From positions 123,194-187,193 of the IMG/VR virus record IMGVR_UViG_3300021364_000001: 64,000 bases of DNA, one strand, 5' to 3'. This document shows, in pieces, positions 1 to 64,000 of the stretch; within the stretch, counting starts at the first letter, position 1; each line of letters opens with the position of its first letter. Below the pieces are notes generated by a model. That model saw only the letters and a program-made list of their open reading frames with translations. It did not search any database and was not told where the DNA came from. The translations under genes and the position numbers were made by a program. The stretch is from a virus.

Positions 1-137
1 GCACTGGTGACACAAGTCTGGGTGTATGTTACACCACCCAGAATGCTAGTCAGTTCTGCAATCAATTCTCTGGTGCGGTCTTCGGCAGTGCCACCCCGCC
101 AATAGTTCTCCATGTAGTTGTCTGACATGTGTGCCAT
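1..137 (-). CDS. Hypothetical protein, 5' part only (runs off window start)
   Basis: Manual translation MAHMSDNYMENYWRGGTAEDRTRELIAELTSILGGVTYTQTCVTS; its ATG overlaps the gp55 stop (ATGA). Not in ORF track. Confidence 0.65.
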   Translation of the reverse strand, partial: MAHMSDNYMENYWRGGTAEDRTRELIAELTSILGGVTYTQTCVTS

Positions 138-628
138 CAGTACCTCGTGTTGGATTCGACTCGGGACTTAATGTAGTTCATGTCTGCCATGTTGTCAAGG
201 TCGTCACTATGCATGACTTCCTCCCATCCCTTACGTTCTAGGATCTTCTCTCTAATTGACTGCTGCCTCTTCTCTTTGGCAATCCTACGCAGGTATGCAT
301 AGTACACAATCTGTGTGAAGTATGCAAACGGGTTGGATGATTTCTCTGGATCAAAGTTATGGATGTACTGAATACAGTTCTCGATACCATCACCAATCAT
401 GTCCTCACGGTACATGTAGTTGATGAAGTTGGGACGATAAGAGAGGTGCGTAGCAATTTTAAGGAAGCATTCACCAATATAGTTCGACACACGAGGTTTG
501 GGTTCACCCTTCTCTGCTGCCTGAGCACACTTGTTACGGTAGATAATCAGTTCATGAAGGAACTGCTTGTTATCTACATAGTGTTCTTTCTTTTTGGCGT
601 TCTTCCGTGCTGGCATAGAAATAGTCAT
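137..628 (-). CDS. gp55: T4-like late transcription sigma factor
   Basis: Motifs HYVDNKQF, YIGECFLKIA, NFINYMYREDMIGDGIENC, NPFAYFTQI typical of gp55; position next to uvsW matches cyanomyovirus synteny. Confidence 0.96.
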   Translation of the reverse strand: MTISMPARKNAKKKEHYVDNKQFLHELIIYRNKCAQAAEKGEPKPRVSNYIGECFLKIATHLSYRPNFINYMYREDMIGDGIENCIQYIHNFDPEKSSNPFAYFTQIVYYAYLRRIAKEKRQQSIREKILERKGWEEVMHSDDLDNMADMNYIKSRVESNTRY

Positions 629-651
629 AGTGGTCCTTCACGGATAGCATA

Positions 652-680: not shown

Positions 681-696
681 GTGACAAAGTGACGGC

Positions 697-725: not shown

Positions 726-764
726 AACACAGTCAGGGTTCAGAGACAGAGTACCTTTAAGTTA

Positions 765-3845: not shown

Positions 3846-4042
3846 GGCACAACAGGAGGGATCACTCCAATAAGTCGAAGCAGACCCTCAGCAAAAAGTG
3901 CAAGAACAACCCACCCAACACACATAGAGATAATTGAAGCATTACGATTGTGCTTTCGTATGGCAGCATCGATCATCTCCTGTACACGTTCTTCTGTGAG
4001 TCTCTCTGGGATCTCTACATCGTTACCCCAGTTCCATTTCAT
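3824..4042 (-). CDS. Small membrane protein
   Basis: 72 aa, C-terminal hydrophobic segment ASIISMCVGWVVLALFAEGLLRLIGVIPP; overlaps both neighbours. Confidence 0.75.
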   Translation of the reverse strand: MKWNWGNDVEIPERLTEERVQEMIDAAIRKHNRNASIISMCVGWVVLALFAEGLLRLIGVIPPVVPWINPHL

Positions 4043-4194
4043 GCTTCTTCTCCATACCAGAAGTCTGCCCAGTCCTCAGCATCTCCTTCGTATACTGGAC
4101 AGGGTTCTTCCATAAGGATGTCTGTCTTCATCCTCAGAGTTCTCTCGTGCAACTCAGGAAGCATTTCGTCGATGAAGTCTAGATCCTTGTTCAT
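4039..4194 (-). CDS. Small acidic hypothetical protein (51 aa)
   Basis: Manual translation MNKDLDFIDEMLPELHERTLRMKTDILMEEPCPVYEGDAEDWADFWYGEEA; ATGA overlaps at both ends. Below ORF-track cutoff. Confidence 0.75.
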   Translation of the reverse strand: MNKDLDFIDEMLPELHERTLRMKTDILMEEPCPVYEGDAEDWADFWYGEEA

Positions 4195-4355
4195 TGGCGG
4201 TACTCATTCAGAATATCTAGGACTGCATTATAGGCGGCATGGGCACCGTCGTGCCATTCCCCACTTTTGTCTTTATGTTCTCCGTCATAGAGAGCAGTCT
4301 TTAACTTGTAGATCCTCGCCTGAATTTCTGGTTTCAGCATGATTCCTCTCGGCAT
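4191..4355 (-). CDS. Small hypothetical protein (54 aa)
   Basis: Manual translation MPRGIMLKPEIQARIYKLKTALYDGEHKDKSGEWHDGAHAAYNAVLDILNEYRQ; late promoter upstream; ATGA overlap with next ORF. Confidence 0.75.
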   Translation of the reverse strand: MPRGIMLKPEIQARIYKLKTALYDGEHKDKSGEWHDGAHAAYNAVLDILNEYRQ

Positions 4356-33568: not shown

Positions 33569-33822
33569 TACTTACTCTCCTTGTTTACTAATTGCAAAAG
33601 TAGACTCTTGATGTCCGACACATCAGATTTTAGATCATTCACCTCTTGTTGTAAAGAGGAGAAGTCTTCCTTTTTCTTTTGTCTTTCTCGATAGGACTGC
33701 ATGTAACTATCATAGACATCCTTATCGCGGAGGAGGATAGCATTAGAATCCTTGTCTCGGTAGAGACCACGGTTCTCGTCCCCCTCCACTGGTATATATT
33801 TAGGTACTCCGAACTTGCTCAT
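33568..33822 (-). CDS. Small protein with C-terminal coiled coil
   Basis: VEGDENRGLYRDKDSNAIL then LQQEVNDLKSDVSDIKSLL; ATGA overlap with the large upstream gene. Confidence 0.8.
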   Translation of the reverse strand: MSKFGVPKYIPVEGDENRGLYRDKDSNAILLRDKDVYDSYMQSYRERQKKKEDFSSLQQEVNDLKSDVSDIKSLLLQLVNKESK

Positions 33823-46142: not shown

Positions 46143-46164
46143 GATCGTTCTTTTTTTACAGTTC

Positions 46165-46171
46165 TATTTAT
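46165..46171 (-). promoter_or_regulatory. Late promoter overlapping upstream stop
   Basis: ATAAATA; its TAA is the YHYH-protein stop. Confidence 0.7.
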
Positions 46172-47788: not shown

Positions 47789-47795
47789 TATTTAT
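47789..47795 (-). promoter_or_regulatory. Late promoter overlapping upstream stop
   Basis: ATAAATA; its TAA is the giant protein's stop. Confidence 0.7.
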
Positions 47796-50700
47796 TGGAA
47801 GATCTGAGTCGGGTTGAAGTTGGTGATGATAGTAGCACCAGTCTGAACTGTGAGGATCACAGAGTTGGAGTAGACAGGTGTAGCACCAGCAGCAGTGATT
47901 GCCACGCGGAATTCATCACCGTCATCTGCCTGTTCAGCAGCATTAGATGTGTAGACCGCAGTGTTCTGACCAGTAATGTTGTTCCAGTCAGTTTCGCCAT
48001 ACTGCTTACGCTGCCACTGATAGTTCAGAGGTGTAGTTCCAACTTGGTTATCAGAACTGTTCACAAACTGACCGACAACAGTGAACTGAGCAGTCTGACC
48101 CTGGTTCACAGTCACGTTCACAGGTTGTGTCACGATGTTGATGTAACCAGGTGTGATGACAATCGGGTTGCCCTGAGGGTCAGTACCTTCGCCAGCGTAG
48201 GTATCAAAACCTTGGTTGACAGCAGGTCCAGTCGGGGGCACGAAGTCATCATCAACAGTAGTCTCAACTGTGACAACTGGTTGTGCATAACCAATACCAG
48301 GAGTCTTCACGTCGATTCTCAGGAGACCCATCAGGGCGCGAATACGACCGTCGAAACCAGTAGAGGAAACCACGTCCACGTTCGGGCGCGAGGTATAACC
48401 ATCGCCAGGTGAGGTGATGATTGCTTTTGTGATCTCACCAGACTTGATGCTGGCAAGAGCAGAAGCACCACGACCCTTGACGGTTCCTGTGTACTCAAAG
48501 GTGATCAGAGAGTTCGAGGATTCAATCAGAGCGACTTCACGTTCGTCTGCCTCACCTTCGATTTGCAGAATATCACCTGCTTCGATCGGAGGTACGACAG
48601 TTGCTGCGATCACGTCAGCGTCAGAACCGATGTAGGAGAAGGCAACAAATGTAGATCCTGCACGAGGAATCTCAGCGAAGATGATTCTAGAACCAACCAG
48701 TTCGTAACCAACACCAGGTTCCTGAATCACACCATTGAGCGAGACGATGATGTTGTTCTCAGGCAGGATAGTGTTGGACGACACACCTTCTGTCAGAGTC
48801 AGGGAGTAGAAACCACCCTGATACTTCAAGTTGAAGGACGAACGCAGAGAGTCAAACTCGAAACTGATGTCATCGAGTTGTCTCAGTTTACCCACGTAGT
48901 AACCAATGAACTCAGAACCAATAGTGGGAGGTTCAGTGAAGGAGATCGAGTCAGAGAACGCTGTGTAGGCGTAGTTTGCACCAGGAGGTTGCAGCACACC
49001 GTTGACGAACACGAGCATGTGTCCAGCAGGATCTGGGAAGTATGCTTCGCCGTTGCTGACAGTAAGTTTGAAGGATGTCTCGGTGCCATCGAAACCACGG
49101 AAGTAACGATCGCAACGACCCAGCAGACCCTTCGCCTGCGTGACACCAGCAGACCAACCATAGTCAGACTTGATAGTCAGGTTAGAGGGGAAGTCTCCAT
49201 TGACATCTTCCAACCAGATGCGACCAGTGTCACCACTGATTGCCTTACCTGCGACCTTACCATAAGAGGTGTAGTTGGTAACCTGAACGCCAATGATGTC
49301 ACACTGAATAATAGGGAAGTTGTTGAGGTTCTCAAACTTACCAAGACCACCAGTCAGGAGTTCATTAGGATCTGTGGTTGTAGTACCATCAGCAGCAGCA
49401 CCATAGGGAGTCAGGTTAGCGATCCAGATCTTGTGGATGCTGTTGTCAGGATCGTAGATGTAATCGGTAACAACGGCGGTCCAACCAGGGATCTTAGGAG
49501 TAGAACCTGCGAGCAGATAAACCAGATCTCCCTTCTTGAAGTCGCCCTCAAAACCTTGGTCTCTCAGGACATTACCAACATCACACTCGATAACTTTCTC
49601 AGCATGTACGAACTGGTTGAGTTCGATTTGCTGGAATCCCTGAGCGGTGATGTAGGCGATATCGAGGATTCTGTCAGTGATAGAACCGTAGATGATGTCA
49701 CCATCGATGAAGTCATCTTGCAGTGTCTCAATGTCGATCGTAATACGACCACCCAGGTTGCTAGTCAAAGAACCAGCAGAGTTTTCATAAGAAACGATGT
49801 CTGCCTCAGCACTATTTCCCTTGTTGAAGATAATTTCGCCGTTAGAAAATGCGCCACGATCAATGTTGACTAGCATACGATCTTCGTTAGTGCCAGTCAC
49901 GACTGCTGTCTGAGCACTATCTACACCTTCCAGGATGTCAGCAGCAGTAAAGGAACCTGTGACATTCTCAACGTAGATCCAACCCTCATCCTCATTATCG
50001 CCCGTGAGGACAGAGGTTTGAAGGACTGTACCGAAGTTTGTACCAGCACCTTGGACCTGAACTCTTTCACCCACGGTGAAGCGACCAGTTGCAGTGTTGA
50101 TGTAGATCTTCTGGTAGAGTTTGACGATCTCTGCTTCGTTGTTTCTAGTTCTAACAATCTCAGAAGAGGCGTTAGAAGTAGCACCCACAACCACGTCTGC
50201 GAGACCAAATGTACCGCTGATGGGGTTGTCAATGTCAGGTTGACCGTAAGTTTTGGCAGTACGAGTAATGCCTGTTCGTACGGGAAGACTCAGTTGCTGT
50301 GTGCCTGTCAGAGAAGTGTCAAGAGCGAAGTCACGGAAGCGAGCATCATGACGGATCTCCTTAGTGATCTCAAACTGTGTTGGCGTAGCATTGAGAACGT
50401 AGACATAATCTACATTAGCAAATGCAGGTTCAACGTCGCTAGATGCAATCGCGTACGTGAGAACATCACCACGAGAGTAGAAGTTAGGACGCTGAATAAT
50501 GACTCTGTTCTCTCTTCTCTCGAATGCCGTTTCGATATTCGGAGTATTGATGATCAGGTCAGGATCAGTGTTCCAGTCAGTACCTTCGTCATAGAGATTC
50601 TGTTGGTTTGTAACGTGAGTATTGTTAGTCCACTGAACAGTGTTCTGAGTGGGAGGTGTGCCTCTGCTAATCGCATAATATGCGAGGTTCAGAGAACTAT

Positions 50701-53700
50701 CAATCTTGAATTGTGTAGATTCCTTCTCATATTCATAACGATTTTCGATCGCATTTGTACCTTCGTGCGTGGGATCAAGATAAATGTCATAACCATACCA
50801 CTCACCACCAACACTACGATCGTTGTAATCATCAAGAACACGCTTGCAGTATTCACTGATTCTTGTTACAAACCACAGAAGATGCTGCTTAGTAACATCA
50901 GGGAACGCGATGAAGTTACCCTCACCATCAAACCACGTATTGACGATTCTCAGGATACCATTGTTACCGCCAGTGTTCATGTCGATGAGCAACCCATTGA
51001 GTAGGGTGTCAGCGAAGGACTGTTCGGCAAGAGTTGCTGGATATGCAGTTTGCACCTCAGCGAACGACTTAGCAGAAACAGCGTGCTTGTTGAAGAGAAT
51101 TCTTCTTGCAGCAGACTTGTCAGAGTTGCTGCCACCACCAAGACTGCTGGTCATCAGATCGAACAGAGTCTCAACAGCACTGGTCACGTTCTCGCAAGTG
51201 TAGAACTGATATTCGCTGTTGCCGTTGTAACCTGCGTCACGAGTAATTGTAGTCAGGTAACTAGGAGCAGGAGAGTTGGATGCAGCAGTTGTGATGGTCT
51301 GAATGATAACATCAAACAAGTTCTCGATAGTTGCTGCTTGTGATGCACATGCTTGGTTCCAGTCGCTGCCAGAGTCATAGGTGATAGAAGTATCACGCAG
51401 AACCATCTCAGGCGAATACTTGACAGGCCAGATGTTGGGCAGTGTCTTGGAGATTGTGCCATCAGTAATGCTAGCGGGCGTGGTAATTGTGTCAGTCACA
51501 ATCGACATCAAAGATGTCATGGCAGCCGCTACGTCGGCACAAGGAGTTACAGTGTCAGTATCAGCAGTTACGACATACCCACCCTGGTTATAGGGGAAGA
51601 AGTCGAGATCAGCAAAATACTTCTGAGTGTAACCATGACCAGCAGTGATGGTGATCGGTTGATCTCTCATCACAGTGATGGCAAGGTCTCTTGCCTTCTC
51701 GAAGATCCAGATAGACTCAGCACTTTGAGAAGTAATATGATCGAGACTGCCATTGGTGACATAGAACTCAGCAGCACGGAACATCTTGTTGTTACCACCA
51801 AAGCGGAGGTTCCAGACCATAGCGTGCAGCACATCAGTTACGTCATGGACACAGTTGATGTTGCCGCCAGGAATAGTCAGACCTGGGAATTGTGCCAGAC
51901 CCTGTGCGACTGCTTCCTCAGCAATCAGTCTGATGTTTCTCTCAATGATGTGTGAAGCATCAATGTATCTGTCGTCAGCACCGTTCTGCTCATAAGTCTC
52001 TACATCAACAGCATCGATCGAAGATGTGCCAACTCCACCAGGAGAGACAGTACCACCAGCACCACCTTCTGCCTGATAAATGTAGAGATTGTCACGTCCG
52101 AAACCATTACGCATGGTCAGGATGCAAATCTCAGCAGCAATCTTATACACGTCGATAGACGCTTCAACTTCTGACTCAATGTGCGAGATGCTGGAATCCT
52201 CAGGGTTCAGATAAAGCAGGGCAGCATCATAAACGGCAGAGTTGCCACCATATCTCAGGTCATGAATGATTGCATCGATAACACCCATCACGTCATCGAT
52301 GCAGTTTTGAGCGCCACCAGGAACAACGAAGTCGAGATACTTCGACAAGTCGTTCATTGTGTAAACTGCCTCGCGAGCAATTACGTGCTTGTTAGCGTCG
52401 AGCAGGTCAGCAGCGTCGATATTTCTGTTAGAAGAAGGATCAGCGTAGTTGTAACCCTTAGTGTCAATAGTGATAGTATCATCTCTATATGCTGTGCGGG
52501 TTGTCCACTGCGCCACATAGTAATCATCATGAGTCTCAGCAGGAACACCCAGTTCAGAAGCAGTGGTGCCAAAGGTCAGCAGAGTGTTGTTGACAGCGTG
52601 GAGAACCAGTTTCTTGACGTAGTTGAAAGCGTCAAGCATTGCACCGATTTCATTTTCAACGTAGATGATATTATTATTATTGTCAAGATAGAAATCAATA
52701 ACATACTGAGTGGCAGAGTTGCCACCAGTAATCAAATCGGTAATAACAGCAGGCAAGATGTACTGCTTGATATCACGCTCACACTTAGAATCGCCACCAG
52801 GAATTGTAAGGAAGTCATAGAAAGTAGTTTCCTGAGTAATCTCATTCAGGATATTTGCCGAATAGTAATCATTCAGATAACCAGTAGTCTCTTCTGCGAT
52901 GTAATCGCGGTTTTTCCAAATGAGGTCACCAGCGTCACGGAATCTGTTGCCCGTGGGACCAAGGATGTCAGCGATAGTGTTAGAAAGAAGAACAATCTCA
53001 TCTTGAATTGCCTGAGAAGCAGGTGCTGTGAAGTTGTTCGGAATACGAAGGATGTCAGTGTACTTAGTGCCATTGTAGGTTTCCAAGTCGCTGCTAGTAG
53101 TGGTAATGACATAGTTGATTACCTCTGCTACTTCGGTCCAAGTGAAGATCGATTGCAGCAGTTCGTTACCAACGTATGCCAGGTCACCAGTCTTAGTCAG
53201 ATAACCTCTACCAGCGATAACGCTGTTGTAGTTACCACCATAACGAATGTCTTCGATGATTGCTTTGAGGATATACTCCTTAGTATCACGCAGACAGAAG
53301 TTTGTACCTTGCTGGACACCAACACCATCAGCGGTGTCACCAGGCATCACAAAGTCAGGATACTTCTCCTTCATCAGACCAACAGCGGTCTCAGCGATCC
53401 AGTCGAGGTTCAGTTCGATTGTGTCAGCACACTTACGATACTCATCACGGGAAAGGTTGATATCCTCAACAATGATGGTCTTCTCGTCATAGTCGATCTT
53501 CTTGGCAGTAGCAGAAGAGTTAGTCTGACCAGTATAGGTAGCAAGTCTCTCCTGAGTGCTCATGATGATCGGCAGTTCAAAACTGAGACCGAAACTTACA
53601 TCATTGAGTCCTGTGCCACTAGGATATGTGAATCCAGGTGTGAAGGTGGCGCTGTAATCAGAGACACCCTTCTTGAAGATGATATTGTCAAGGTGTCCAA

Positions 53701-56700
53701 CAAAATTGTTGCTACCTGCTTCGTCAGCACCAATCTTGAATGCACGTTCCAGATAAGCATTGTTGTCAGTGTAATCACCACCAACTTGTGTACCATCAAC
53801 CCACACCTTAGTGATGTTGGTAGTTCTGGTAACAGCAACGTGATGCCAATCAGTGGTAGTCATGTTGTGAGTACCAGTGATTTGATCACTGCCGTTATAC
53901 CACCAGTTGATAGTTCCACCGTTGAGATAGAGAACAGGAGAACCATTCTCAGTAGGACCACTGGTGCGTGTATCCCACAGATATTGCAGACCAGTCAATG
54001 TGGTGGGTTTAACCCACATTTCGATAGTGAAGTCATCAGTGCCAAACTTGTTAACGTCACTCAGAGGATGAGAGAGGTAACCGCCAGCGTCGATTCTCAG
54101 AGACTTAGTGCCAGACTTGTATTCCAGGATTGTCTGAACAGCGTTAGTGGCAGTAAGTTTGGTGTTAGTGATGTACTCTCTGTTTTGCAGAGTACCAGTG
54201 ATAGAGTTGGTGAACAACCATTTCAGACCAGCGTTAGCACCTTTCAGAGAGAGGCTAGCGCCCGAAGTCGCACCAGTGATGGTGTCACCAGGCAGGAAGA
54301 ATCCATTACCCAGGGGTTCCTTGTAGGATATCTTAAAGACACGCAGGTTCTCATTCTCTTGGAAGGAACCATCGCTGATAACTGACAGAGCATTGATGTT
54401 GTTCAGGTTACCTGCATTGATTGCAGTAGTGGCAATCGAGGTCAGAGTATCCAGAGCAGCCTGTACGTCAGCACAAAGGGTATCGTCGTCAAAGTTAGTA
54501 CCCTGAGAGTAGTTGGGATCGTATGTATGACCTTCGCTAGAAGAGGTCAAATACGGACCAGGGTATGTAGAGGGGTCATAGACCAGTGTCAGATCTCTGT
54601 CGTACAGGAGGTTGTTGATGGCAAGTTTTGCCATGTCTCTTGCCTTGTTGAAGGCAGTGATGGATTCAGCAGTCTCACCAACCAGACCGTTGCTGATGGG
54701 AGTGCCATTAGCATCAAAGTAGAATCTAGTAAACTTGACAACACCATAGTTGCCATCACCCCTGATATCCTGAACCAAAGCATCAACAAAGTAACCGATG
54801 TCACGACGACACTTAGTCTCATTGGTGCTATATGTGCTAGGTTCAGAGAGTTCAATCAGATCAGACAAGGAACCTGCAAGCAGAACCTCAGACACGTTGT
54901 CGAACAAGGTTTGCAGGGCAGACTGAACGTCGGAGCAGTTGTTAGCACCGAAGTTATCAGTATTGCTACCAGCAGTACCATAAGGGTTCCCAGGTGAAGG
55001 ATCAGCAGTGATACCAGTGCCACTAGAACCACCAGTGCTACGCTCATCATACAGATTATAAGTTTGACCACCTGCTGTGTCTGTACCAGTCAGCATGTTG
55101 GTGAGAGCATTTTTCATGTAACCGAGTGCTTGCTCGAAAGCATACTCAGTTGCCTCTGCTTCATTATTAACATACAGGAAGGTAGTACCATCCTCACTGA
55201 AATACATCTGCAAGAACTTGCGGGTGTATACAGTGCCACCTTGGAACATGTCCATGGACAGAGCATCAACAAAGTGACCGATGTCACGAATGCACTTGGT
55301 CGTAGAAGGAATAGGAAGAGTAGGATACTCAACAACCATATCGTCATAAGACTTGGCTTTGATGTATTCCTTATTACGTTGAATCAGGCGGTATGCATCA
55401 GCGTATCTGCTGAACTGGTCAGTCTGGTTGTCACCAGGATAATAGAACCCAGGATGCTGAACAGCGATTTCAGCATTAGCAAAGTCAATGATCTCTTGCT
55501 TGTTAGCAGCAATTCTGTTGGCAGCGTCATACCATCTGTTCAACGCATCAGTTACAGGATTACCATAAGTAACGGTAATAGAACGGAGAGTATCTCCTGC
55601 TGCCATCGCACCACCTGTCAGGTTCTCATACTGAATTTCAGTAGAACGAACCTCTTCAAAGTCTAGGAAGTCAGCGTTGATACGATCAGTGCTATCGAGA
55701 ATCTCAGTAGGTGTAATCGTTGTCTTAGAAATGTCATCCAGAATGACGTTGGTGTTAGTTAGGGAGATCAGACGTTCAAAGATCATACCGAAGAAGGTAG
55801 AACCTTTGTTGATCGTTAGAGTATCCACAACGTCACCAACTCTGGGTTGACCGTTAATGGTCTCAGTCAGAGCACCAGGAATAATAGTATCAGGATCGCC
55901 AACAGCTGTGGTGTAGATCTGAATGGTTTCATTGACTTGGATGGGTTGTCCAGACTCAGCATCCAGAGTATTAGGATCGAGATTGAATGCCTGCTCAGTC
56001 TTGGGCAGATAATAGAGAACAGGAGGAGATGCCTCAAAGTCAACTCTTACAACCTCGCCTCTTGCGCCAGAGGTTACACCAAAGAATGTATCACCTTCAA
56101 CAAAGGTGTCCCAAGCACCAGAGATAGTGGCAGGACGCTCCAAGTTGATGCTAGTGATCGGATCTCTGTAAGGAGCGATACTTGTGACACGAGCAGCAAT
56201 GTTAGATGCAGCAGAGTAGAAGATGTCGTTCAGGAACAGGTTGTACTGACCCGTTTCATACTCAGCAGTACCAGAAGTCTTGGACAGAACCAGAGTGTCA
56301 GAGATGTTGCCATCGAGGTCAAGATTAGTTTCTTCGACGATAGCAGTGTCTCCATCCATGTTAGTGACAGTCTCACCAAACTCAAAGATGGTCTTGTAGT
56401 TGACACTATCAACGTTCAGGATGTTAGCGCCATAACCAGCGTTGAAGAATGTGAGGTCTTCACCACGCTCGAAGTATCCATCAGACATGTCTGTCACTTG
56501 GATGCTGTTCTCGGTCAGGTCGATAGATGTAACAGTTGCTCTCGCACCTGAGGTCTGACCAGTAATTCTGTCACCGATGAGAACTGTACCGAATGTGCCA
56601 CCAATGTTTTGGAGGAACAGTTTGGTGAAGGACTTGTCAATAGAACCAACCAGAGCACTGAAACCAGTTCTACCAACGTCAACACGCTCGTTCAGAGCAA

Positions 56701-59700
56701 AACCAGTAGAAGAACCAGAGATGTCTACAACGTCGATGCTAGTAGCGCCAGTTGCAACAACCTTAGCAGTTGTCTCAGTTGTGAAACCAGTAATAGTGTC
56801 ACCGATAGAGGGGAAGATACCAGCAATAGTGTTGAGGTTCAGTCTGGTGATCGGCATAATATCGAAGTCGATATTCCTATACACGATCTTAGAATCGGGT
56901 CTAGGTGCCTCAGAGAAGACGATGCTATTACCAACAACCTGATAAGAAGTGCCAGGAGACTGGATAACGCCATTGATAGTGACGAGCAGTTGGTTATCCT
57001 TAACGATAACCTGCTCACCTTCTACTCTAAGAGGGAACGCTTTGGTAACACCATCAAACTGAGAAGAAATATCATCAATCTTCTTAACGATAGAAGTCAG
57101 AATTTCCTCAGAGTTGGTCAGTCTCTTCTTACGGAAGAGAACTTCGGAGTTATTAAAGGTCGAGTAGATCGGTTGAGCAGCGCCAAACGAGGTGATCTCG
57201 TTAACGTTAGTGTACTCATTGATGTTTACCTGCTTGGTGAAGTCAGCAGCAACCTTACGACCAGATACGTCCTTACCACCAGTCAGTGACAGTTCACCGA
57301 ACATGTTGAAACCAACAGGGTGGTTGTTTTCAAGGATCTGCTGCTTCCAACGGTTGATAGGAATCTGAGACTTGATAACGTAGGAGAAGTTCTGGTAGAA
57401 GTAGGAGTCTTGGATCTTCTGAATGATCTCAGAAGGTTTACCTACATCATCAGTAAATCTACCAGCAGTTCTAGTGATAGCGTCAATGTTCAACACGCCC
57501 TTAGCAATGTTGATGTTGTCGATGATACCAGATGCACGAGAGATAACACCCTGCACCTTACCACCAACAACAAAGTCGCCATTGGGATTGGTAATTTTCA
57601 GGATCTTAGGTTGAATCTGCCAACCATCGTTTTCGGAAACAACACCGAAAGCAGTTGCACCTTCAAAGTCTTCACCTTGGAATACTTGCTCACCTTCCAG
57701 GAAGCGAGAAGTCTCAACCACTGCTTCTGCTTGACCACCGAATACCTCAGTGAGCAGCACCTGACGACCATCACCCTGAGTCAAGAAGGTAATGAAGTTA
57801 CCAGACTCAGCGTCAACTGGGGTCAGTGCAAAACGCAGTTGGTCAGATTCAAGACCATTTGCCTCTCCTGCAATGGCGTAGTAGGTCTGAGTAGAAGACA
57901 GACTGGTCAAACCAACGCTACTCGGTTTCGGCAGAACACCAACAGTAGAACCAATATCCTCAGCACGGAACTGAACCTCAGCACCAGTGGTAATACCATG
58001 AGGGAAGTTAAATTGCAAGTAGTTCAAGTCGAGGTTCACAACATAGGTGAACTCAGATTTCAGAGTAACAACAGGTTGTGAAGAGTAACCAGAACCAGGA
58101 TTCTTGATCAGAATCTCAGACAGTCTGTTGTTCTTAACCACTGCTTCTGCTTCGGCACCAGTACCGCCACCACCTTGGATGATAACAGCAGGTGCAGAGG
58201 TGTAACCAGCACCAGGGTTGGTGATTGTAATCTGAGACAGAATAGAAGTATTGAAGAGTTGCAGGTTGATCGGGAATGCAATCTCAGGACGTAGGGTATA
58301 GTCATGGGAGTAACCATAACCAAACTCATTGTTTTTCAGAGTCTTGATCTTACCGACTTGCTTACCAGTAAGGAACACAGCAGCGCCAGTACCCTCAGCA
58401 GGGATCACAACCTCAATCTCACCACCAGAACCCGACAGTGTGGGTCCGAGAATGCCTGGGATAGCGTCAATGTCAATAGAACCGAAAGTATACCCTTTAC
58501 CAGGATCAGTCAGAGCAACTTGACTGATGGCACCAGATCCAGTCTCTGGATCGTTTTCAACGGTGATATTACAAAGACCACCTTCACCATCACCAAGAAT
58601 CGGAACCTGAGTGTATACGCCAGGTGCATACTCAGTACCAGAGGCAGTAATACGAAGTTTCTCAATCTTACGATTAGAAGAGATGTCATCAATGACTGGG
58701 AGTTTCTTATAGAATCCACCAGGAGAAATCAACTTAATAGAGTTGATAGGACCGATTGCCTTGGTAGAAGTCGTAGAATAGATCGTATTCGGGACATCTT
58801 GGTCATCCAGACCGATTTCGGCGTTTGTGAACTCAGGTTCGTACAGAAGCGGGAATCTGAACTCAGTATCACTAATAACTTCGGAAATAGTGAATCTGCC
58901 GTCAAATGGGGTCTTGATAACGTCGATGAACGAATTAGCGCCCACAGGAGACGTTACACCAGTTCTAGACGGATCGAAGTAGTAAGTAATGTTAGTAACC
59001 TCACCACCGATCGTAAACTTGACCACAGGGGTCTCAGTAGCGGAAGAAAGTCCAGGAGTACCTTCACGCTCGATTACGTTGAAAGAATATTCCAGTTTGT
59101 ACTGGTTGTCTTGTGCAAACGACAGATAGTAACCAAAGTTGGAAGCATCACTCATATCGAAGATATAAGAGTGATTTCTGACCAGAAGCAGTGTGGGGTG
59201 CTTAGACGAGATCTTCACACGAGAAATAGCACCTTGTGCGAATGCAGGGTCAGCAGTTGCAGTTGCTCTCAGTTTGTAGATGAAATCTCTCGAAGAGAAG
59301 ACTTCTTTAACGAAGAACGAACCATTGAACTCGGCAGTAGTGAATCCTTCAACAAAGAGGATGTCATTGGTGTTGAAGTTGTGAGGAGACAGTGCAGAAC
59401 AGTAAATCAGGTCAGTTCTGTTGTCAGCAGTTCTAATGATGTCCTTATTCAAGTTTACAGTCAATCTAATCTTCTTAACGGAAGAAAGACCATTGATTTC
59501 GGCAATCTTGTCGTTAGAGTCCTCTTTGATACCAGCAGTGATACTGTTACCCAAGGAAACAACGTCACCGATGATGAAGTCAGATCCAGGGTAAGTATTG
59601 AGGATAGTTACACGATAGTCGGCAACACTGAACGGACGATAGCGAGCATAGTCAGAAAGTGGATCATATGTACTAGTGTATTGCCATGTAACGGAATTAT

Positions 59701-62700
59701 CTGTGGCAGTGCCTGCGGTATGCGTCGGAGCGACAGTACCAGACACACCAGCAACTGTACATGTATACTTGTTTCTGCCGAAGTATACGGTGTCGTCTAC
59801 ATCGTAAGAACGAGTTTCTGCCCAAGGATCAGCATCAGTAGGTGTCGGCCAAGGATAGTCTGCTAGATCGACTTCAATAGCAGGAGCAGCACTAATATAC
59901 TGCCAAACAACAGCACCATCAGTTACTGTACCGATTTCATGGGTCGGAGCAGTAGATCCAGAGGTTGCATTGTTAGTTGCATAGTAAAGTTTGCCATCAG
60001 ACCAAACTTGGTCATTTACGACATACGCTTTACCAGATTCCCAAACATCTTGGGGACGAGCAACATCAAATGAGATTTCATCGATTGTGTTCTCTTCATT
60101 TGCATCATTTTGATACAGATCGTCATTATTGAACGTACCGTAGATCTTACCAACTTTATAGGTAGTTCCAAGACCAGGATCGTCAATAGTTCCAGCAGGA
60201 GCCTCTACGATGGTGCCATATGCTTGCACAACACCATTACTGTTGACCTGTTGCAGAATGCTACCTTTCTTAAACTTAATTGCTTGATTAAAGACGAATT
60301 CTTTAACAGCGTCGATCTTCTGATAACCAGCGTCTCTAATGTAGTATTTGGGAAGAACCAGAGGTTCAATTTTCAGTTTTCTGCCCAGAGGAGTTGGAAT
60401 CGTCGAAGTCTTGGACTCATAGGTATATCTGTTCTGGACAAAGGTATAAGTGCCAGGAGCAAGAGTAGATACAACATCAGAGTAGTCAAGAATCTGCAAA
60501 CCAGAAGAACCAACGTTCCAAGTTGTAATTACAGGGTTTGAGATAGTATTAACAGTATATGCAATACCATCAGTCTCGAAATCCAAAGATTCGGTATTTC
60601 TAGTTCCATCAGGTGTGAAGTTGCCTCTCTTAGAGTGAAGACGATCAAACTTGATCAGTTCCAGAGCATCATTGGTTGTCGTGATTCTATAACGCTCAGT
60701 GGGAACCACCAGAGAAGATCCACTATATACTGCTCTGGGATCAACGACAATATCGTCAATATGACCCAAGAAGGTGTTACCAATCAAAGGACCACCCTGA
60801 GCAGCACCAATGGTCAGATCATTCATTACGATGTCATTTACAGTCGTCTGAGTAGCGACTTGAACGCCATCAAAGTAACAAGAGTAGACATAAGAACCAA
60901 GAGAAGGTTCTTCCTTCACCAGAGCGATATGGTGCCAATCTTGGTCCTGCATAGCAGTCCAATAAGTAGAACCAACAGACCAAACAGTAGTTCCACCGCC
61001 ACCAACGGGATTTGTTTGCAGACCGATCTTACCGAAGTTGCCACTACCAGAATTACCGTCAATAATGTACTGAACATCAGCACCGAGGTCATCGACGACT
61101 GTAATCATGTTAATGGTGGGATTATTAGTGGCATGGGTGTTATCCATGCGAACCCAGAACACTGTGGTCCACTCTTCAAGCAGATTGATGTCTTGCCAGA
61201 CCAAACTGTTGGTATCTTGGAATTCAAGAGATCTAGTACCGAACTTCGCTTGTGTATCACTAGAAGCGATGTTAGCAGCGTCGAAAATGGTAATTGTGCT
61301 TACCAGGTTCTGCTTAGTGTCATCAAAGGTCGGATTTGCTTGATCTTCAAATCTATGAACGATTGTTTGGACAGGATTCTGTCTGTTGGTCGCCAGAATA
61401 ACATCACCAGAGTTATCCACTGCATGAGAGTGAACTTTGAAACCAACATCGTTAGCAGACTTGGAAACATTGGTAATCTTGGAAGATTCGATGGTTCCGT
61501 CGTACTTGAATCCGAAAATAGTCGCTTGTAGGTTATTATCTTCGAGTTGGGTCTCTGTGGCGACGTTAACATTGCCAAATATGTCCAGAGTGATGCCAGC
61601 GTGCTTGATCGACTCAAATGTGGTCGAAGGAGCGATGATCTTAGCAAAATCCCACTGAGGAGTTGCAACAGTCAGTCTGATTTGATCCAAAGCGATCTTG
61701 AAGAAGGCAACACCATAATTCTTGGTGCCATTCCACATATCGCAGACAAAGAACAGATCATTGTACTCATCAAGGATAAAACGAGGTCTCTGTACATCGC
61801 CACCACTTACAGCGAGACGTTTTACATAAGACATCTCGATATTTGCACCGTCATACTCCATAACACCAAACATGAGGTCGGAGTTGTCCTGATCAATGCC
61901 ACAGAAAGCAACCTGGTTGTCTCCGAGGTAGTACAGTTGATGCATCTGCTCACCTTCGGTGTCAGAAGCAAACTTACGCTTCTCTACAACATCACCTTGG
62001 TTATTGAGTTGCATGACCCAGATATCGTCTGGATCAGGGGAGTTAGTGTCGGTCCAACCGCAGATATAGACTCTTTGCTCGTCATCCAGGTAGATATCAC
62101 CAGCATAGTCACGTCTGGTAGAACCAGACACACCAGCAATCTCTTTCTGGAATCTTACAAGACCTTCTGGATTGTTAGCATTGTCAAGACCAGATTCATA
62201 CTTAGCGACAAGGATATCAGGGTTGTAACCAGCAGTTCCTTGGGACTCGGTTTCACCAATCAAGTAAATCAGGTGATTTTCTTCGCTGGTCTCATCAAGA
62301 TACATCTTCTTCCAACGTGCAGTCTTGATAGAAGCACTAGGAAGCAGTGTTCTGTCCCAAACAACGCTACCAAGGTCATTGAACTTAGCAATGAAGGCAG
62401 AACTATCACCATTGGTCTGAGTCAGTTCACCACAGACATACAGACTACGATCAGAAGCAACAATGGAGTCAAATACTTCAAAGGTAGCACCAGTAGACTC
62501 GGAAAACTCAGTAGACCAGTAATATGTCTTCTTGAATCTCTGAGGATGGGAAACGCGGATTTCTGGGGGATTCTCAGTATCATAATTGAAACCAGAGTTG
62601 ATGATATCAACCTTATCAATCTTACCAGTCGTGGTATCCAGTTTGATATCCAGTTCAACGTCTTGACCCTGAGAACTGATGATCTCATAGGTCGGAGGAA

Positions 62701-64000
62701 TTGCCTGATTGTAACCAATACCACTTTGAGTGATAGTAATCGAATCAATGCCTGTAACAACAGACATGTAGAAACGCTTATTAGTATTCTCAGTAATAAC
62801 TCTGGAATTGACGATCAGTTCGTCTTGTGCAACTAGTTCGTGCTCTGTGGTGGTTGTGATTCTACCGTAGGGGATGTCATTGATGATTTCTTTTCTATAC
62901 TGCGAAATACCTGCACCTTGCACAGATTCAACCTGTGCGCTAGCGCCGAAACCATCTGTTCCTGTATTGTCAAAGAATAGTGTATCGTTAACCTGATAGG
63001 AAACACCAGGATTCTCGATAACGAAACCATCGATCTGAGCATTCTCGAATTTCGTCGTCGTCTCAACTTCGATATCGACTCGGGATTCTGTCGAAACTCT
63101 TGGGAAGTAATCATAGATTTGAAGTGCTGCTTCCTCCGTCATCGCCTGATTTGTGGCGATTTCCTCAGGAGAAATGATACCATCATTATCTATATCTTCA
63201 ATCTCGAAGATAATAGTGTCACCTTCACGCTCAGTGACCAGCTGGTCGGACTGTTGGTTAGGTTGACGATCAATATCGATATCAACTTCATCATAGGGAT
63301 CTCTGAAACGAGACACATCAGAGGGGATGTTCTCCTGGGTTGCTTGCTGACTCAGGTTCCAAGTATCAACCACAGAGTTGAACTGAGGTCCAATAATGTA
63401 AGGGAACACAGGAAGACCTGCTTCCGATGCATCAATAGTGATGAAGTAGGCATAAATGCCATCGGGATATTCAGGTGTCTTACAGAAACGACCGTTGTAA
63501 GGATCAAGATCGCCTTCTTGGAAAGTGTATTCGTAGTCATCAACGAACTGACCAGCAGGGTATTCGGTCAGAGAAGGTCCGTCAATACGAGCAGGGTTGG
63601 GGTTAGTATCGATATCATATACAACGTTTGCTTTCAGTTTGTAAGAAGAACGCATTCTTCTGATACCACCGCCAGCATCGGTAGGATCGATGTAACCATA
63701 AGGTCCGTAGATGGGACTTCCATCAAATGCCCAACCAATAATTGGAGAGTGGGTAATAGAAGCACCAGTCTCAGTTCCTTCTTCTTTGAACTGATTGGTC
63801 TCTGGGTCGAGAATTACGTTATCACCAACCACATAGCGGAGTTCTTTGGGATCGGATACGTGAGCATACTCACCACCATACTGGTTATTGAAACCAGTGA
63901 AAACATAACCACGAGCAATATCATACTTGGAACTCAGATCATATTCCAGGTTCTTGTTCCACTGGAACACATCTGCTTCAAATGTAGCAAGTTGACCAAC
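47792..64000 (-). CDS. Giant (>5400 aa) multidomain baseplate protein, gp7-like; 5' end beyond window
   Basis: Frame is open to 64000 (VGQLATFEADVFQWNK...). Contains a YHYH-like segment, a propeller-like region, two LamG-like domains, CBM-like modules, HPVGFNMFGE, VxxNGVIQ repeats, helical Cys repeats and a C-terminal Ig domain; lies upstream of gp8. Confidence 0.8.
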   Translation of the reverse strand, partial: VGQLATFEADVFQWNKNLEYDLSSKYDIARGYVFTGFNNQYGGEYAHVSDPKELRYVVGDNVILDPETNQFKEEGTETGASITHSPIIGWAFDGSPIYGPYGYIDPTDAGGGIRRMRSSYKLKANVVYDIDTNPNPARIDGPSLTEYPAGQFVDDYEYTFQEGDLDPYNGRFCKTPEYPDGIYAYFITIDASEAGLPVFPYIIGPQFNSVVDTWNLSQQATQENIPSDVSRFRDPYDEVDIDIDRQPNQQSDQLVTEREGDTIIFEIEDIDNDGIISPEEIATNQAMTEEAALQIYDYFPRVSTESRVDIEVETTTKFENAQIDGFVIENPGVSYQVNDTLFFDNTGTDGFGASAQVESVQGAGISQYRKEIINDIPYGRITTTTEHELVAQDELIVNSRVITENTNKRFYMSVVTGIDSITITQSGIGYNQAIPPTYEIISSQGQDVELDIKLDTTTGKIDKVDIINSGFNYDTENPPEIRVSHPQRFKKTYYWSTEFSESTGATFEVFDSIVASDRSLYVCGELTQTNGDSSAFIAKFNDLGSVVWDRTLLPSASIKTARWKKMYLDETSEENHLIYLIGETESQGTAGYNPDILVAKYESGLDNANNPEGLVRFQKEIAGVSGSTRRDYAGDIYLDDEQRVYICGWTDTNSPDPDDIWVMQLNNQGDVVEKRKFASDTEGEQMHQLYYLGDNQVAFCGIDQDNSDLMFGVMEYDGANIEMSYVKRLAVSGGDVQRPRFILDEYNDLFFVCDMWNGTKNYGVAFFKIALDQIRLTVATPQWDFAKIIAPSTTFESIKHAGITLDIFGNVNVATETQLEDNNLQATIFGFKYDGTIESSKITNVSKSANDVGFKVHSHAVDNSGDVILATNRQNPVQTIVHRFEDQANPTFDDTKQNLVSTITIFDAANIASSDTQAKFGTRSLEFQDTNSLVWQDINLLEEWTTVFWVRMDNTHATNNPTINMITVVDDLGADVQYIIDGNSGSGNFGKIGLQTNPVGGGGTTVWSVGSTYWTAMQDQDWHHIALVKEEPSLGSYVYSCYFDGVQVATQTTVNDIVMNDLTIGAAQGGPLIGNTFLGHIDDIVVDPRAVYSGSSLVVPTERYRITTTNDALELIKFDRLHSKRGNFTPDGTRNTESLDFETDGIAYTVNTISNPVITTWNVGSSGLQILDYSDVVSTLAPGTYTFVQNRYTYESKTSTIPTPLGRKLKIEPLVLPKYYIRDAGYQKIDAVKEFVFNQAIKFKKGSILQQVNSNGVVQAYGTIVEAPAGTIDDPGLGTTYKVGKIYGTFNNDDLYQNDANEENTIDEISFDVARPQDVWESGKAYVVNDQVWSDGKLYYATNNATSGSTAPTHEIGTVTDGAVVWQYISAAPAIEVDLADYPWPTPTDADPWAETRSYDVDDTVYFGRNKYTCTVAGVSGTVAPTHTAGTATDNSVTWQYTSTYDPLSDYARYRPFSVADYRVTILNTYPGSDFIIGDVVSLGNSITAGIKEDSNDKIAEINGLSSVKKIRLTVNLNKDIIRTADNRTDLIYCSALSPHNFNTNDILFVEGFTTAEFNGSFFVKEVFSSRDFIYKLRATATADPAFAQGAISRVKISSKHPTLLLVRNHSYIFDMSDASNFGYYLSFAQDNQYKLEYSFNVIEREGTPGLSSATETPVVKFTIGGEVTNITYYFDPSRTGVTSPVGANSFIDVIKTPFDGRFTISEVISDTEFRFPLLYEPEFTNAEIGLDDQDVPNTIYSTTSTKAIGPINSIKLISPGGFYKKLPVIDDISSNRKIEKLRITASGTEYAPGVYTQVPILGDGEGGLCNITVENDPETGSGAISQVALTDPGKGYTFGSIDIDAIPGILGPTLSGSGGEIEVVIPAEGTGAAVFLTGKQVGKIKTLKNNEFGYGYSHDYTLRPEIAFPINLQLFNTSILSQITITNPGAGYTSAPAVIIQGGGGTGAEAEAVVKNNRLSEILIKNPGSGYSSQPVVTLKSEFTYVVNLDLNYLQFNFPHGITTGAEVQFRAEDIGSTVGVLPKPSSVGLTSLSSTQTYYAIAGEANGLESDQLRFALTPVDAESGNFITFLTQGDGRQVLLTEVFGGQAEAVVETSRFLEGEQVFQGEDFEGATAFGVVSENDGWQIQPKILKITNPNGDFVVGGKVQGVISRASGIIDNINIAKGVLNIDAITRTAGRFTDDVGKPSEIIQKIQDSYFYQNFSYVIKSQIPINRWKQQILENNHPVGFNMFGELSLTGGKDVSGRKVAADFTKQVNINEYTNVNEITSFGAAQPIYSTFNNSEVLFRKKRLTNSEEILTSIVKKIDDISSQFDGVTKAFPLRVEGEQVIVKDNQLLVTINGVIQSPGTSYQVVGNSIVFSEAPRPDSKIVYRNIDFDIMPITRLNLNTIAGIFPSIGDTITGFTTETTAKVVATGATSIDVVDISGSSTGFALNERVDVGRTGFSALVGSIDKSFTKLFLQNIGGTFGTVLIGDRITGQTSGARATVTSIDLTENSIQVTDMSDGYFERGEDLTFFNAGYGANILNVDSVNYKTIFEFGETVTNMDGDTAIVEETNLDLDGNISDTLVLSKTSGTAEYETGQYNLFLNDIFYSAASNIAARVTSIAPYRDPITSINLERPATISGAWDTFVEGDTFFGVTSGARGEVVRVDFEASPPVLYYLPKTEQAFNLDPNTLDAESGQPIQVNETIQIYTTAVGDPDTIIPGALTETINGQPRVGDVVDTLTINKGSTFFGMIFERLISLTNTNVILDDISKTTITPTEILDSTDRINADFLDFEEVRSTEIQYENLTGGAMAAGDTLRSITVTYGNPVTDALNRWYDAANRIAANKQEIIDFANAEIAVQHPGFYYPGDNQTDQFSRYADAYRLIQRNKEYIKAKSYDDMVVEYPTLPIPSTTKCIRDIGHFVDALSMDMFQGGTVYTRKFLQMYFSEDGTTFLYVNNEAEATEYAFEQALGYMKNALTNMLTGTDTAGGQTYNLYDERSTGGSSGTGITADPSPGNPYGTAGSNTDNFGANNCSDVQSALQTLFDNVSEVLLAGSLSDLIELSEPSTYSTNETKCRRDIGYFVDALVQDIRGDGNYGVVKFTRFYFDANGTPISNGLVGETAESITAFNKARDMAKLAINNLLYDRDLTLVYDPSTYPGPYLTSSSEGHTYDPNYSQGTNFDDDTLCADVQAALDTLTSIATTAINAGNLNNINALSVISDGSFQENENLRVFKISYKEPLGNGFFLPGDTITGATSGASLSLKGANAGLKWLFTNSITGTLQNREYITNTKLTATNAVQTILEYKSGTKSLRIDAGGYLSHPLSDVNKFGTDDFTIEMWVKPTTLTGLQYLWDTRTSGPTENGSPVLYLNGGTINWWYNGSDQITGTHNMTTTDWHHVAVTRTTNITKVWVDGTQVGGDYTDNNAYLERAFKIGADEAGSNNFVGHLDNIIFKKGVSDYSATFTPGFTYPSGTGLNDVSFGLSFELPIIMSTQERLATYTGQTNSSATAKKIDYDEKTIIVEDINLSRDEYRKCADTIELNLDWIAETAVGLMKEKYPDFVMPGDTADGVGVQQGTNFCLRDTKEYILKAIIEDIRYGGNYNSVIAGRGYLTKTGDLAYVGNELLQSIFTWTEVAEVINYVITTTSSDLETYNGTKYTDILRIPNNFTAPASQAIQDEIVLLSNTIADILGPTGNRFRDAGDLIWKNRDYIAEETTGYLNDYYSANILNEITQETTFYDFLTIPGGDSKCERDIKQYILPAVITDLITGGNSATQYVIDFYLDNNNNIIYVENEIGAMLDAFNYVKKLVLHAVNNTLLTFGTTASELGVPAETHDDYYVAQWTTRTAYRDDTITIDTKGYNYADPSSNRNIDAADLLDANKHVIAREAVYTMNDLSKYLDFVVPGGAQNCIDDVMGVIDAIIHDLRYGGNSAVYDAALLYLNPEDSSISHIESEVEASIDVYKIAAEICILTMRNGFGRDNLYIYQAEGGAGGTVSPGGVGTSSIDAVDVETYEQNGADDRYIDASHIIERNIRLIAEEAVAQGLAQFPGLTIPGGNINCVHDVTDVLHAMVWNLRFGGNNKMFRAAEFYVTNGSLDHITSQSAESIWIFEKARDLAITVMRDQPITITAGHGYTQKYFADLDFFPYNQGGYVVTADTDTVTPCADVAAAMTSLMSIVTDTITTPASITDGTISKTLPNIWPVKYSPEMVLRDTSITYDSGSDWNQACASQAATIENLFDVIIQTITTAASNSPAPSYLTTITRDAGYNGNSEYQFYTCENVTSAVETLFDLMTSSLGGGSNSDKSAARRILFNKHAVSAKSFAEVQTAYPATLAEQSFADTLLNGLLIDMNTGGNNGILRIVNTWFDGEGNFIAFPDVTKQHLLWFVTRISEYCKRVLDDYNDRSVGGEWYGYDIYLDPTHEGTNAIENRYEYEKESTQFKIDSSLNLAYYAISRGTPPTQNTVQWTNNTHVTNQQNLYDEGTDWNTDPDLIINTPNIETAFERRENRVIIQRPNFYSRGDVLTYAIASSDVEPAFANVDYVYVLNATPTQFEITKEIRHDARFRDFALDTSLTGTQQLSLPVRTGITRTAKTYGQPDIDNPISGTFGLADVVVGATSNASSEIVRTRNNEAEIVKLYQKIYINTATGRFTVGERVQVQGAGTNFGTVLQTSVLTGDNEDEGWIYVENVTGSFTAADILEGVDSAQTAVVTGTNEDRMLVNIDRGAFSNGEIIFNKGNSAEADIVSYENSAGSLTSNLGGRITIDIETLQDDFIDGDIIYGSITDRILDIAYITAQGFQQIELNQFVHAEKVIECDVGNVLRDQGFEGDFKKGDLVYLLAGSTPKIPGWTAVVTDYIYDPDNSIHKIWIANLTPYGAAADGTTTTDPNELLTGGLGKFENLNNFPIIQCDIIGVQVTNYTSYGKVAGKAISGDTGRIWLEDVNGDFPSNLTIKSDYGWSAGVTQAKGLLGRCDRYFRGFDGTETSFKLTVSNGEAYFPDPAGHMLVFVNGVLQPPGANYAYTAFSDSISFTEPPTIGSEFIGYYVGKLRQLDDISFEFDSLRSSFNLKYQGGFYSLTLTEGVSSNTILPENNIIVSLNGVIQEPGVGYELVGSRIIFAEIPRAGSTFVAFSYIGSDADVIAATVVPPIEAGDILQIEGEADEREVALIESSNSLITFEYTGTVKGRGASALASIKSGEITKAIITSPGDGYTSRPNVDVVSSTGFDGRIRALMGLLRIDVKTPGIGYAQPVVTVETTVDDDFVPPTGPAVNQGFDTYAGEGTDPQGNPIVITPGYINIVTQPVNVTVNQGQTAQFTVVGQFVNSSDNQVGTTPLNYQWQRKQYGETDWNNITGQNTAVYTSNAAEQADDGDEFRVAITAAGATPVYSNSVILTVQTGATIITNFNPTQIFQ
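50900..55560 (-). repeat. Array of helical repeats resembling phycobiliprotein subunits
   Basis: Recurring DA..(I/L)..N...I..EA...P....PG(G/D)...C.(R/D/H)D......A...D(L/I)..GGN and C.(10).FD segments. Confidence 0.7.

Follow-up and report, generated by a model that had tools for sequence, protein, structure and literature searches.

Phycobiliprotein-type domains with two conserved candidate bilin-site cysteines, nested within a giant cyanophage baseplate protein

The question raised by this locus is what a series of helical repeats resembling phycobiliproteins is doing within a structural protein of a cyanophage, a marine Synechococcus virus, and whether the conserved cysteines of these repeats carry bilins. 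The DNA under study, referred to here as the window, is a stretch of 64,000 nucleotides at the end of a virus record of 187,193 bp (IMGVR_UViG_3300021364_000001). The repeats are encoded by a gene for a giant baseplate or virion protein, which was recognised from the list of open reading frames (ORFs) and their translations and which runs along the minus strand at 47792..64000, its 5' end being open in the window. Once the circular record is closed the protein has 6,759 amino acids from its ATG, of which the window encodes residues 1358-6759; the residue numbers used below (P0001) count from the first codon of the window. On the strength of sequence profiles and predicted models, the repeats are true members of the phycobiliprotein family, and they lie in the C-terminal half of the protein, which is of the gp7 type.

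When the segment 50900-55561 is compared with the Pfam phycobiliprotein model PF00502, a check that had been proposed with the initial annotation of this DNA, it scores 54.9 bits against a cut-off of 22.2 (E 1.3e-14). Four single repeats match the model in the same register (positions ~30-85 and once 30-141), with scores of 13.7-19.4 bits that lie under the cut-off. Seven full copies (R1 to R7) and one half copy (R0) are detected by profile, in agreement with the six to seven helical repeats counted in the initial annotation, although the range given there, 50900-55560, is too short since the last copy, R7, extends past it to 50663. The six cysteine codons recognised at that time are all found where they had been placed, in the one minus-strand frame of the giant gene.

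A search of all PDB sequences with a profile of the seven internal repeats gives about 58 phycobiliproteins among the 60 best rows. At the top stands the phycocyanin alpha chain 2vjr_A (E 1.2e-5), where the phage C-x-R-D falls on KCARD. A second profile, constructed from the orthologues of R1 and R6, again finds almost only phycobiliproteins (E 7e-5) and places the cysteine also on the CIRD of a beta chain. Moreover, the conserved aspartate of a D-A motif in helix A is aligned by HMMER with beta Asp39, which we take to be the residue that touches the beta-155 bilin in phycocyanin structures. The likeness had been described as matching almost register for register, and this holds from the cysteine onwards, where the spacing is identical and a GG pair stands at +18/+19, but not for the region just before it, where a deletion of seven residues relative to phycobiliproteins lies between the PGG turn and the cysteine. 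No description of phycobiliprotein-type domains in phage structural proteins was found in the literature searched, as had been anticipated, yet automatic PF00502 matches are already recorded on most of the homologues in precomputed public tables. A 2023 paper on phycobiliprotein origins brings in phages for their reductases only.

The fold was examined with two AlphaFold models, for which 40 and 26 homologues had been aligned. Model 1 extends over residues 3505-4460, with a predicted local distance difference test (pLDDT) score of 81.4 and a predicted template modelling (pTM) score of 0.79, and model 2 covers residues 2805-3200 (pLDDT 77.9, pTM 0.83). With Foldseek the E-values against the PDB are weak (0.03-0.2), because the queries are multidomain, but the phycobiliprotein rows carry probabilities of 0.95-1.00. 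After re-alignment with VIA the 50 best chains are, for both models, without exception phycobiliprotein beta subunits or a like-folded ‘bacterial fluorescent protein’, with Z of 13.7-16.1 and a typical root-mean-square deviation (rmsd) of 1.8-2.4 Å over about 130 residues, from chain residue 32/34 to 172. In the predicted models R1, R5 and R6 match the globin-like fold of helices A, B, E, F, G and H. The globin-fold membership put forward in the initial annotation is thus borne out by the PF00502 score, the PDB profile matches and the model superpositions together. As judged from the models, the domains are cut down to this globin core. The tight superpositions begin at chain residue 32-34, whilst looser rows get to residue 1-8 by way of the helices of the preceding domain.

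The copies are arranged along the minus strand in an order that is in part nested, with R1, R3, R6 and R7 contiguous. The first element, R0 (55457..55543; residues 2820-2848), is a half copy consisting of an A/B-type helix pair, which matches the profile at hidden Markov model positions 3-49 and PF00502 at 32-70 (13.7 bits) and occupies helices 16-28 and 30-44 of model 2. It is followed by R1 (54875..55420; residues 2861-3042), a complete contiguous domain that matches Pfam positions 30-141 with 15.9 bits and whose model residues 57..237 superpose on phycocyanin beta 32..172 with an rmsd of 1.8-2.0 Å over 130 residues and a Z of ~14. R2 (54413..54826; residues 3059-3196) matches the profile with helices E to H, seen in model 2 at 255-277, 281-288, 306-324 and 373-392. 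The R0 pair probably belongs to R2 as its A/B helices, R1 having been inserted behind them. Between R2 and R3 lies a beta domain of the concanavalin A/laminin G-like type (53684..54064, minus strand; PF13385, E 3.5e-16, residues 500-626 of the 50900-55561 segment).

R3 (52961..53455; residues 3516-3680) is again contiguous, its model residues 1..177 superposing on chain residues 17..177 with a Z of 15.0 and an rmsd of 3.7 Å. R4 (52592..52948; residues 3685-3803; model 1 helices 181-299) and R5 (52112..52438; residues 3855-3963) both comprise helices A to G and are followed, before any helix H of their own, by R6 (51482..51976; residues 4009-4173), the innermost contiguous domain. R6 gives the best single Pfam match (18.3-19.4 bits, positions 29-85), and its model residues 505..669 superpose on phycocyanin beta 34..172 with an rmsd of 2.1-2.4 Å and a Z of ~15. 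The superpositions of R5 run from model residue 346/347 to 733 against beta-chain residues 27..172/177 (rmsd 2.2 Å, 135-143 residues, Z 14.8-15.7) and span all of R6, taking in a helix at 715-736 of model 1 (51281..51349) that lies after it. Since the beta chains superpose on helices A to G of R5 together with this helix H beyond R6, the models show R6 to be nested within the G-H loop of R5. A further helix, at 766-783 of model 1 (51140..51196), comes after both R5 and R6 and would by elimination close R4, giving the nesting R4 > R5 > R6. The last domain, R7 (50663..51127; residues 4292-4446; model 1 helices 788-942), is recognised by profile with E 4e-31. In many relatives about 110 extra residues lie between helices G and H of R6 (for example L030:2492-3328 against 51476-51988 of the window), and one giant relative (P0030) has about 900 residues over the same span. 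By these sequence comparisons the G-H loop is a recurrent insertion point.

Two cysteine positions recur in the domains. Site 1, of the Cys84/beta-82 type, lies in helix E within C-x-R/D/H-D, and its cysteine and aspartate are present in six of the seven domains: Cys2903 in R1 (TKCIRD, 55292-55294), Cys3064 in R2 (TKCRRD, 54809-54811), Cys3569 in R3 (NFCLRD, 53294-53296), Cys3740 in R4 (SKCERD, 52781-52783), Cys3900 in R5 (QNCIDD, 52301-52303) and Cys4050 in R6 (INCVHD, 51851-51853). The arginine at +2 is found in four domains, with aspartate in its place in R5 and histidine in R6. The cysteine and the aspartate at +3 had been regarded from the outset as the bilin-site residues; both are conserved, and CXRD is named as the bilin site in PMC10151467.

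Site 2 is a cysteine that stands directly before helix H, at its N-cap, in five domains, with the motif C-[AS]-[DEN]-V-x-x-A-[LM]-x-T-L. These are Cys3022 of R1 (54935-54937), Cys3176 of R2 (54473-54475), Cys4154 of R6 (51539-51541), Cys4218 in the helix H of R5 (51347-51349) and Cys4269 in the helix H assigned to R4 (51194-51196); the helix H of R3 is without a cysteine. The equivalence of site 2 with beta-153/155 is drawn from the superposition end points and from HMMER. The ends of helix H at model residues 669, 237 and 733 align with chain residue 172, which places Cys650, Cys218 and Cys714 of the models on beta Cys153. In sub-threshold, secondary HMMER alignments the phage ‘I-T-A-D-..-n-C-s-d-v-q-s-a-l’ lies on ‘I-V-N-D-P-N-G-I-T-R-G-D-C(153)-S-A-L’. 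This second conserved cysteine, newly recognised here, therefore maps, on sequence and model, onto the beta-153/155 bilin site.

Both positions are conserved well beyond this protein. Among 809 copies in 121 giant homologues, the helix-E cysteine is present in 797 and the aspartate at +3 in 806, and the +2 column holds arginine in 557, aspartate in 148 and histidine in 80. A further 146 representatives of 50%-identity clusters have CxRD in 1,291 of 1,406 copies, with cysteine and aspartate together at 97.5% per protein; the conservation profile was made from motif-bearing copies, so that badly degenerate copies may be under-sampled in these counts. Taken over some 2,200 domain copies, the CxRD-type site is retained in more than 97%. 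In orthologue alignments that reach down to about 35% identity, little or no variation is seen at the six helix-E cysteines or at those of helix H. The cysteine, arginine and aspartate of R2 are kept in 25 of 26 orthologue rows and those of site 1 in R3 and R4 in all 40 rows, whilst for site 2 Cys4218 is invariant in 40 rows and Cys4269 in the 36 of 36 that are aligned. Other cysteines of the block, Cys3524, Cys3959 and Cys4385, vary among C, A, S and V. The giant protein is poor in cysteine (31 in 6,759 residues), and 11 of the 14 cysteines in the block lie at the two site positions. R7 is without both sites in all orthologues, its motif columns being gapped in the repeat alignment, and since it keeps the fold, the fold does not depend on the site cysteines. 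Across hundreds of divergent phage proteins, then, both cysteines are under strong purifying selection.

Comparison with known systems brings out what is shared and what is peculiar to the phage domains. With the phycobiliprotein beta subunits (CpcB, CpeB, the cryptophyte beta chain; PF00502) they share the predicted A-H globin core at an rmsd of ~2 Å, the helix-E cysteine of C-x-R-D, the helix-H N-cap cysteine at beta-153/155, the aspartate of D-A in helix A and the PGG turn before helix E. These subunits have an X-Y hairpin, which is not evident in the phage repeats, and are without the seven-residue deletion before the cysteine. The phage domains also carry 40-50 extra residues or whole domains in the G-H loop, recur, in part nested, along a single chain of 6,759 residues, belong to a virus baseplate rather than a phycobilisome, and have a chromophore that is putative. 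The alpha subunits (CpcA, CpeA) give the best sequence matches, namely 2vjr_A with E 1.2e-5 and 5aqd_A, and helix E of R1 and R2, with T-K-C-x-R-D-I-G-h-F, reads nearly as K-C-A-R-D-I-G-Y-Y; they do not, however, possess the G-H loop cysteine that is present in five phage domains. In the core-membrane linker ApcE a phycobiliprotein-type domain, broken by an inserted loop, is likewise part of a large protein of many domains, and bilin attachment there needs no lyase. ApcE differs in the position of its cysteine, in having a single such domain followed by linker repeats, and in being intracellular. The bilin biosynthesis-associated globins (BBAGs) BBAG-1 and BBAG-3 are CXRD-containing phycobiliprotein relatives outside the antenna that need no lyase to bind several bilins (Rockwell et al. 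2023, PMC10151467). By their description they resemble the phage domains in being non-antenna relatives with CXRD, but they are free-standing proteins of heterotrophic bacteria encoded beside bilin reductase genes, whereas the phage module is not free-standing among its best 150 clusters and has no reductase in this genome. As to the baseplate part, T4 gp7 resembles the N-terminal part of the phage protein in the baseplate wedge families and ends without a comparable C-terminal extension. Fusions of gp7 into a giant gene longer than 15 kb were described in 2005 for P-SSM2 (orf113) and P-SSM4 (orf080) (PMC1079782), and the giant gp7-fusion protein of P-SSM2 is without the phycobiliprotein-type module.

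The module is, as far as sequence searches show, restricted to cyanophages. Of 50,697 phage records, tblastn finds it in 349, each from a cyanophage; S-PM2, P-HM1, P-HM2 and P-TIM40 are among them. In the BFVD it matches tail, tail-fibre and structural proteins of Synechococcus phages. A HMMER search of 1.84 billion representatives gives 1,048 clusters, the best 150 of which are proteins of 730-7,903 amino acids with up to 34 copies and none with an informative name. Free-standing relatives of one domain (100-321 amino acids) were represented by a single match, a fragment, and by none among the best 150 clusters. P-HM2 has three full copies in a 3,682-amino-acid tail fibre protein two genes after gp7, with the motifs CYDD, CVDD and CIDD and two C-A-N-V helix caps; it has further copies in an ORF of 4,458 amino acids and also encodes a bilin reductase. 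No match to three different module profiles was found in P-SSM2, even at E 1.

The genome described here also encodes a homologue of the T-type lyases, CpeT (169 amino acids; PF06206, 42 bits; phrog_488, 2.5e-41). The cpeT gene lies outside the window and overlaps by a few bases with an upstream gene on the same strand for a 192-amino-acid 2-oxoglutarate (2OG)-Fe(II) oxygenase (46074-47148 of the record); S-WAM1 has the same pair. The role of the phage cpeT has been called unresolved (PMC3037559). Full-length CpeT/CpcT proteins occur in Syn1 (NC_015288.1 19950-20462), S-RSM4, S-CAM1 and S-CAM3, scoring 107-144 bits with PF06206 against ~25-45 for the short phage type, and Syn1 is listed without the CpeT-like cluster in Table 3 of PMC3037559. 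Together, these scores and this listing point to two distinct phage cpeT lineages.

Co-occurrence of the module and cpeT was scored with profile A6 and PF06206 in 20 complete cyanophage genomes and in this one. Both are present in 14 (this genome, P-HM2, Syn1, P-SSM4, Syn9, P-RSM4, P-SSM7, Syn19, Syn33, S-SM1, P-TIM40, S-RSM4, S-CAM1 and S-CAM3) and neither in six (P-SSM2, S-SM2, S-SSM7, S-TIM5, S-CRM01 and P-TIM68). The module occurs alone in S-T4, as a single copy in an ORF of 847 amino acids (NC_048049.1 59613-60029), and cpeT alone in none, so that the two agree in their presence or absence in 20 of the 21 genomes. A Fisher test uncorrected for kinship gives p ~1e-4. On a tree of the gp20 portal protein, all 14 genomes with both lie to the same side of one branch (support 86), and the four marine genomes with neither fall with S-T4 in one clade, which suggests a separate acquisition of the module by S-T4. 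The co-occurrence was dropped as support, since on the portal tree one or two events suffice to produce it; the pattern agrees with a functional link but gives no evidence of one. Nor does a link between bilin synthesis by phages and the module hold as a rule. According to Table 3 of PMC3037559, pebS and ho1 are present in P-SSM2 and S-SSM7; both phages are without the module, so that phage bilin synthesis is not tied to it, and the present genome has the module without such genes.

It is against this background that the binding of bilins has to be judged, and we hold the evidence for it to be about evenly balanced. The reading draws on the family homology, the second site, the conservation of both sites, the contrast with R7, the presence of cpeT, the range limited to cyanophages and the existence of CXRD globins that need no lyase. 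The giant protein would be made late in infection, in a cytoplasm rich in phycoerythrobilin and phycocyanobilin, where the CxRD pockets could load bilin unaided, as do the BBAGs with the same motif, or with the help of host lyases of the S/U type. For the helix-H cysteine, loading may fall to a T-type lyase; the phage gene cpeT codes for a homologue. The virion would then bear on its outer baseplate as many as 11 bilins per chain, and the pigment there may serve as a light sensor that gates adsorption, as a structural cofactor or as a photoprotectant. Contact of the virion with phycobilisomes, which had also been envisaged, is unlikely because this part of the baseplate is extracellular. Assembly into (alpha-beta)3 discs or rods seems improbable too, given the fusion to the baseplate and the apparent lack of X-Y helices.

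Several observations weigh against bilin binding. The seven-residue deletion shortens the loop which in phycobiliproteins lies over the bilin, and the N-terminal X-Y hairpin dedicated to alpha/beta pairing is not evident in the repeat sequences. The arginine is replaced by aspartate or histidine in R5, R6 and all three copies of P-HM2. Neither a ferredoxin-dependent bilin reductase nor a haem oxygenase was found in this genome, and P-SSM2 and S-SSM7, which have pebS and ho1, lack the module. S-T4 has a module copy in a genome without cpeT, and the portal tree requires one change for cpeT and two for the module and leaves only two independent contrasts (sign test p = 1). Finally, no report of coloured cyanophage preparations was found.

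The same body of evidence has to be set against other explanations. That an unrelated helical repeat should have come to resemble phycobiliproteins by chance or convergence could be argued from the single repeats, which stay at 13.7-19.4 bits under the Pfam cut-off, and from the weak Foldseek E-values (0.03-0.2). It is nevertheless refuted as far as sequence and predicted fold show, and we give it almost no weight, as four repeats share one register on a single Pfam model, with a summed score of 54.9 bits, two different profiles match phycobiliproteins almost exclusively, and all 50 best VIA rows are phycobiliproteins at Z 14-16 with Foldseek probabilities of 0.95-1.00. A more serious proposal, possible though doubtful, is that the phycobiliprotein core acts without pigment as a rigid, nestable brick of baseplates and fibres, the cysteine, arginine and aspartate having an internal or inter-domain role or binding a ligand other than a bilin. 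The repetition of the module, which reaches 34 copies in proteins of 730-7,903 amino acids and never stands alone among the best 150 clusters, would suit such a role, as would its presence in the tail and tail-fibre proteins of many cyanophages, the shortened B-E loop, the replacement of the arginine in some copies and the lack of bilin-synthesis genes in the genome searched. The fold of R7, however, stands without these residues, both cysteines are fixed down to ~35% identity while other cysteines drift, and in the phycobiliprotein family CxRD and the beta-153 cysteine are known only as sites of bilin attachment (PMC10151467).

A structural use of the cysteines themselves, as disulfides or metal ligands that stabilise an extracellular structure in oxidising seawater, appears quite improbable. 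It would fit a protein that belongs to the extracellular particle and in which, despite its general poverty in cysteine (31 in 6,759 residues), 11 of 14 block cysteines are conserved. Yet the two positions are those of beta-82 and beta-153, the conserved cysteines are odd in number (11), with a single one in R3, the neighbouring arginine and aspartate have no role in a disulfide, and the protein is assembled in a reducing cytoplasm. Moreover, the beta-82 and beta-153 bilins of phycocyanin are ~34 Å apart in crystal structures, a distance that also speaks against a disulfide or shared metal.

The first 1,357 residues of the giant protein are encoded at the start of the record (128-4198, minus strand), so that the gene spans the ends of the record. 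As the 127-bp terminal repeat of the record lies inside the coding sequence, gene callers working on the linear record give a fragment of 5,392-5,402 amino acids rather than one of 6,759. Residues 1-1357 match the baseplate wedge families phrog_2885 (E 1.4e-171), phrog_708 and phrog_719, and Pfam Baseplate_wedge (PF23786) scores 21.3 bits on this N-terminal part, below its cut-off of 27; phrog_701, a virion structural protein family, covers the giant protein from end to end. The nearest named phages are the Synechococcus phages S-WAM1 (79% nucleotide identity) and S-SZBM1, and the orthologue in S-WAM1 is annotated ‘baseplate wedge initiator’. Both the cyanophage origin and the baseplate nature of the protein, already proposed in the initial annotation, are in agreement with these relatives, PHROG families and record annotations. 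The middle of the protein contains a YHYH domain (PF14240, E 5.7e-29; window 63428-63874, residues 43-191 of the window translation), followed by weak matches to a chitin-binding CBM_5_12 repeat and to a beta-propeller repeat. Downstream of the gene there are two further giant ORFs on the minus strand, at 25683-33275 (2,530 amino acids) and 33819-41231 (2,470 amino acids), in which a profile search at E 1e-3 found no phycobiliprotein-type module. The giant baseplate protein is the sole carrier of the module in this genome.

A possible place for the module in the biology of these phages is suggested by light-dependent adsorption. Darkness prevents the adsorption of P-HM1 and P-HM2 but not of P-SSM2, and for S-PM2 the effect of light on adsorption is independent of host photosynthesis, light-sensitive receptors or tail fibres having been proposed (PMC6628666). 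P-HM2, with the module in its tail fibre, is thus dark-negative and P-SSM2, without it, dark-positive, a contrast between two phages on opposite sides of the portal tree that fits the idea of a sensor. That bilins on the baseplate and tail-fibre modules of the virion act as a photoreceptor gating adsorption, and so would account for its light dependence in cyanomyoviruses such as S-PM2, P-HM1 and P-HM2, with CpeT loading the helix-H cysteine, is an unlikely proposal, and any role in light sensing is speculation consistent with the data.

What is new here is the second cysteine site, the nesting of the domains, the conservation of the sites across copies and the persistence of the fold in R7 without them. 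Even if no pigment is bound, a light-harvesting fold used as a nested building block of a virus tail represents an unusual capture of a host fold. Two puzzles of cyanophage biology, adsorption that needs light and the substrate of cpeT, gain a concrete candidate in a virion protein with intact-looking bilin sites, and the carriage of pigment by a virus particle is now open to test.

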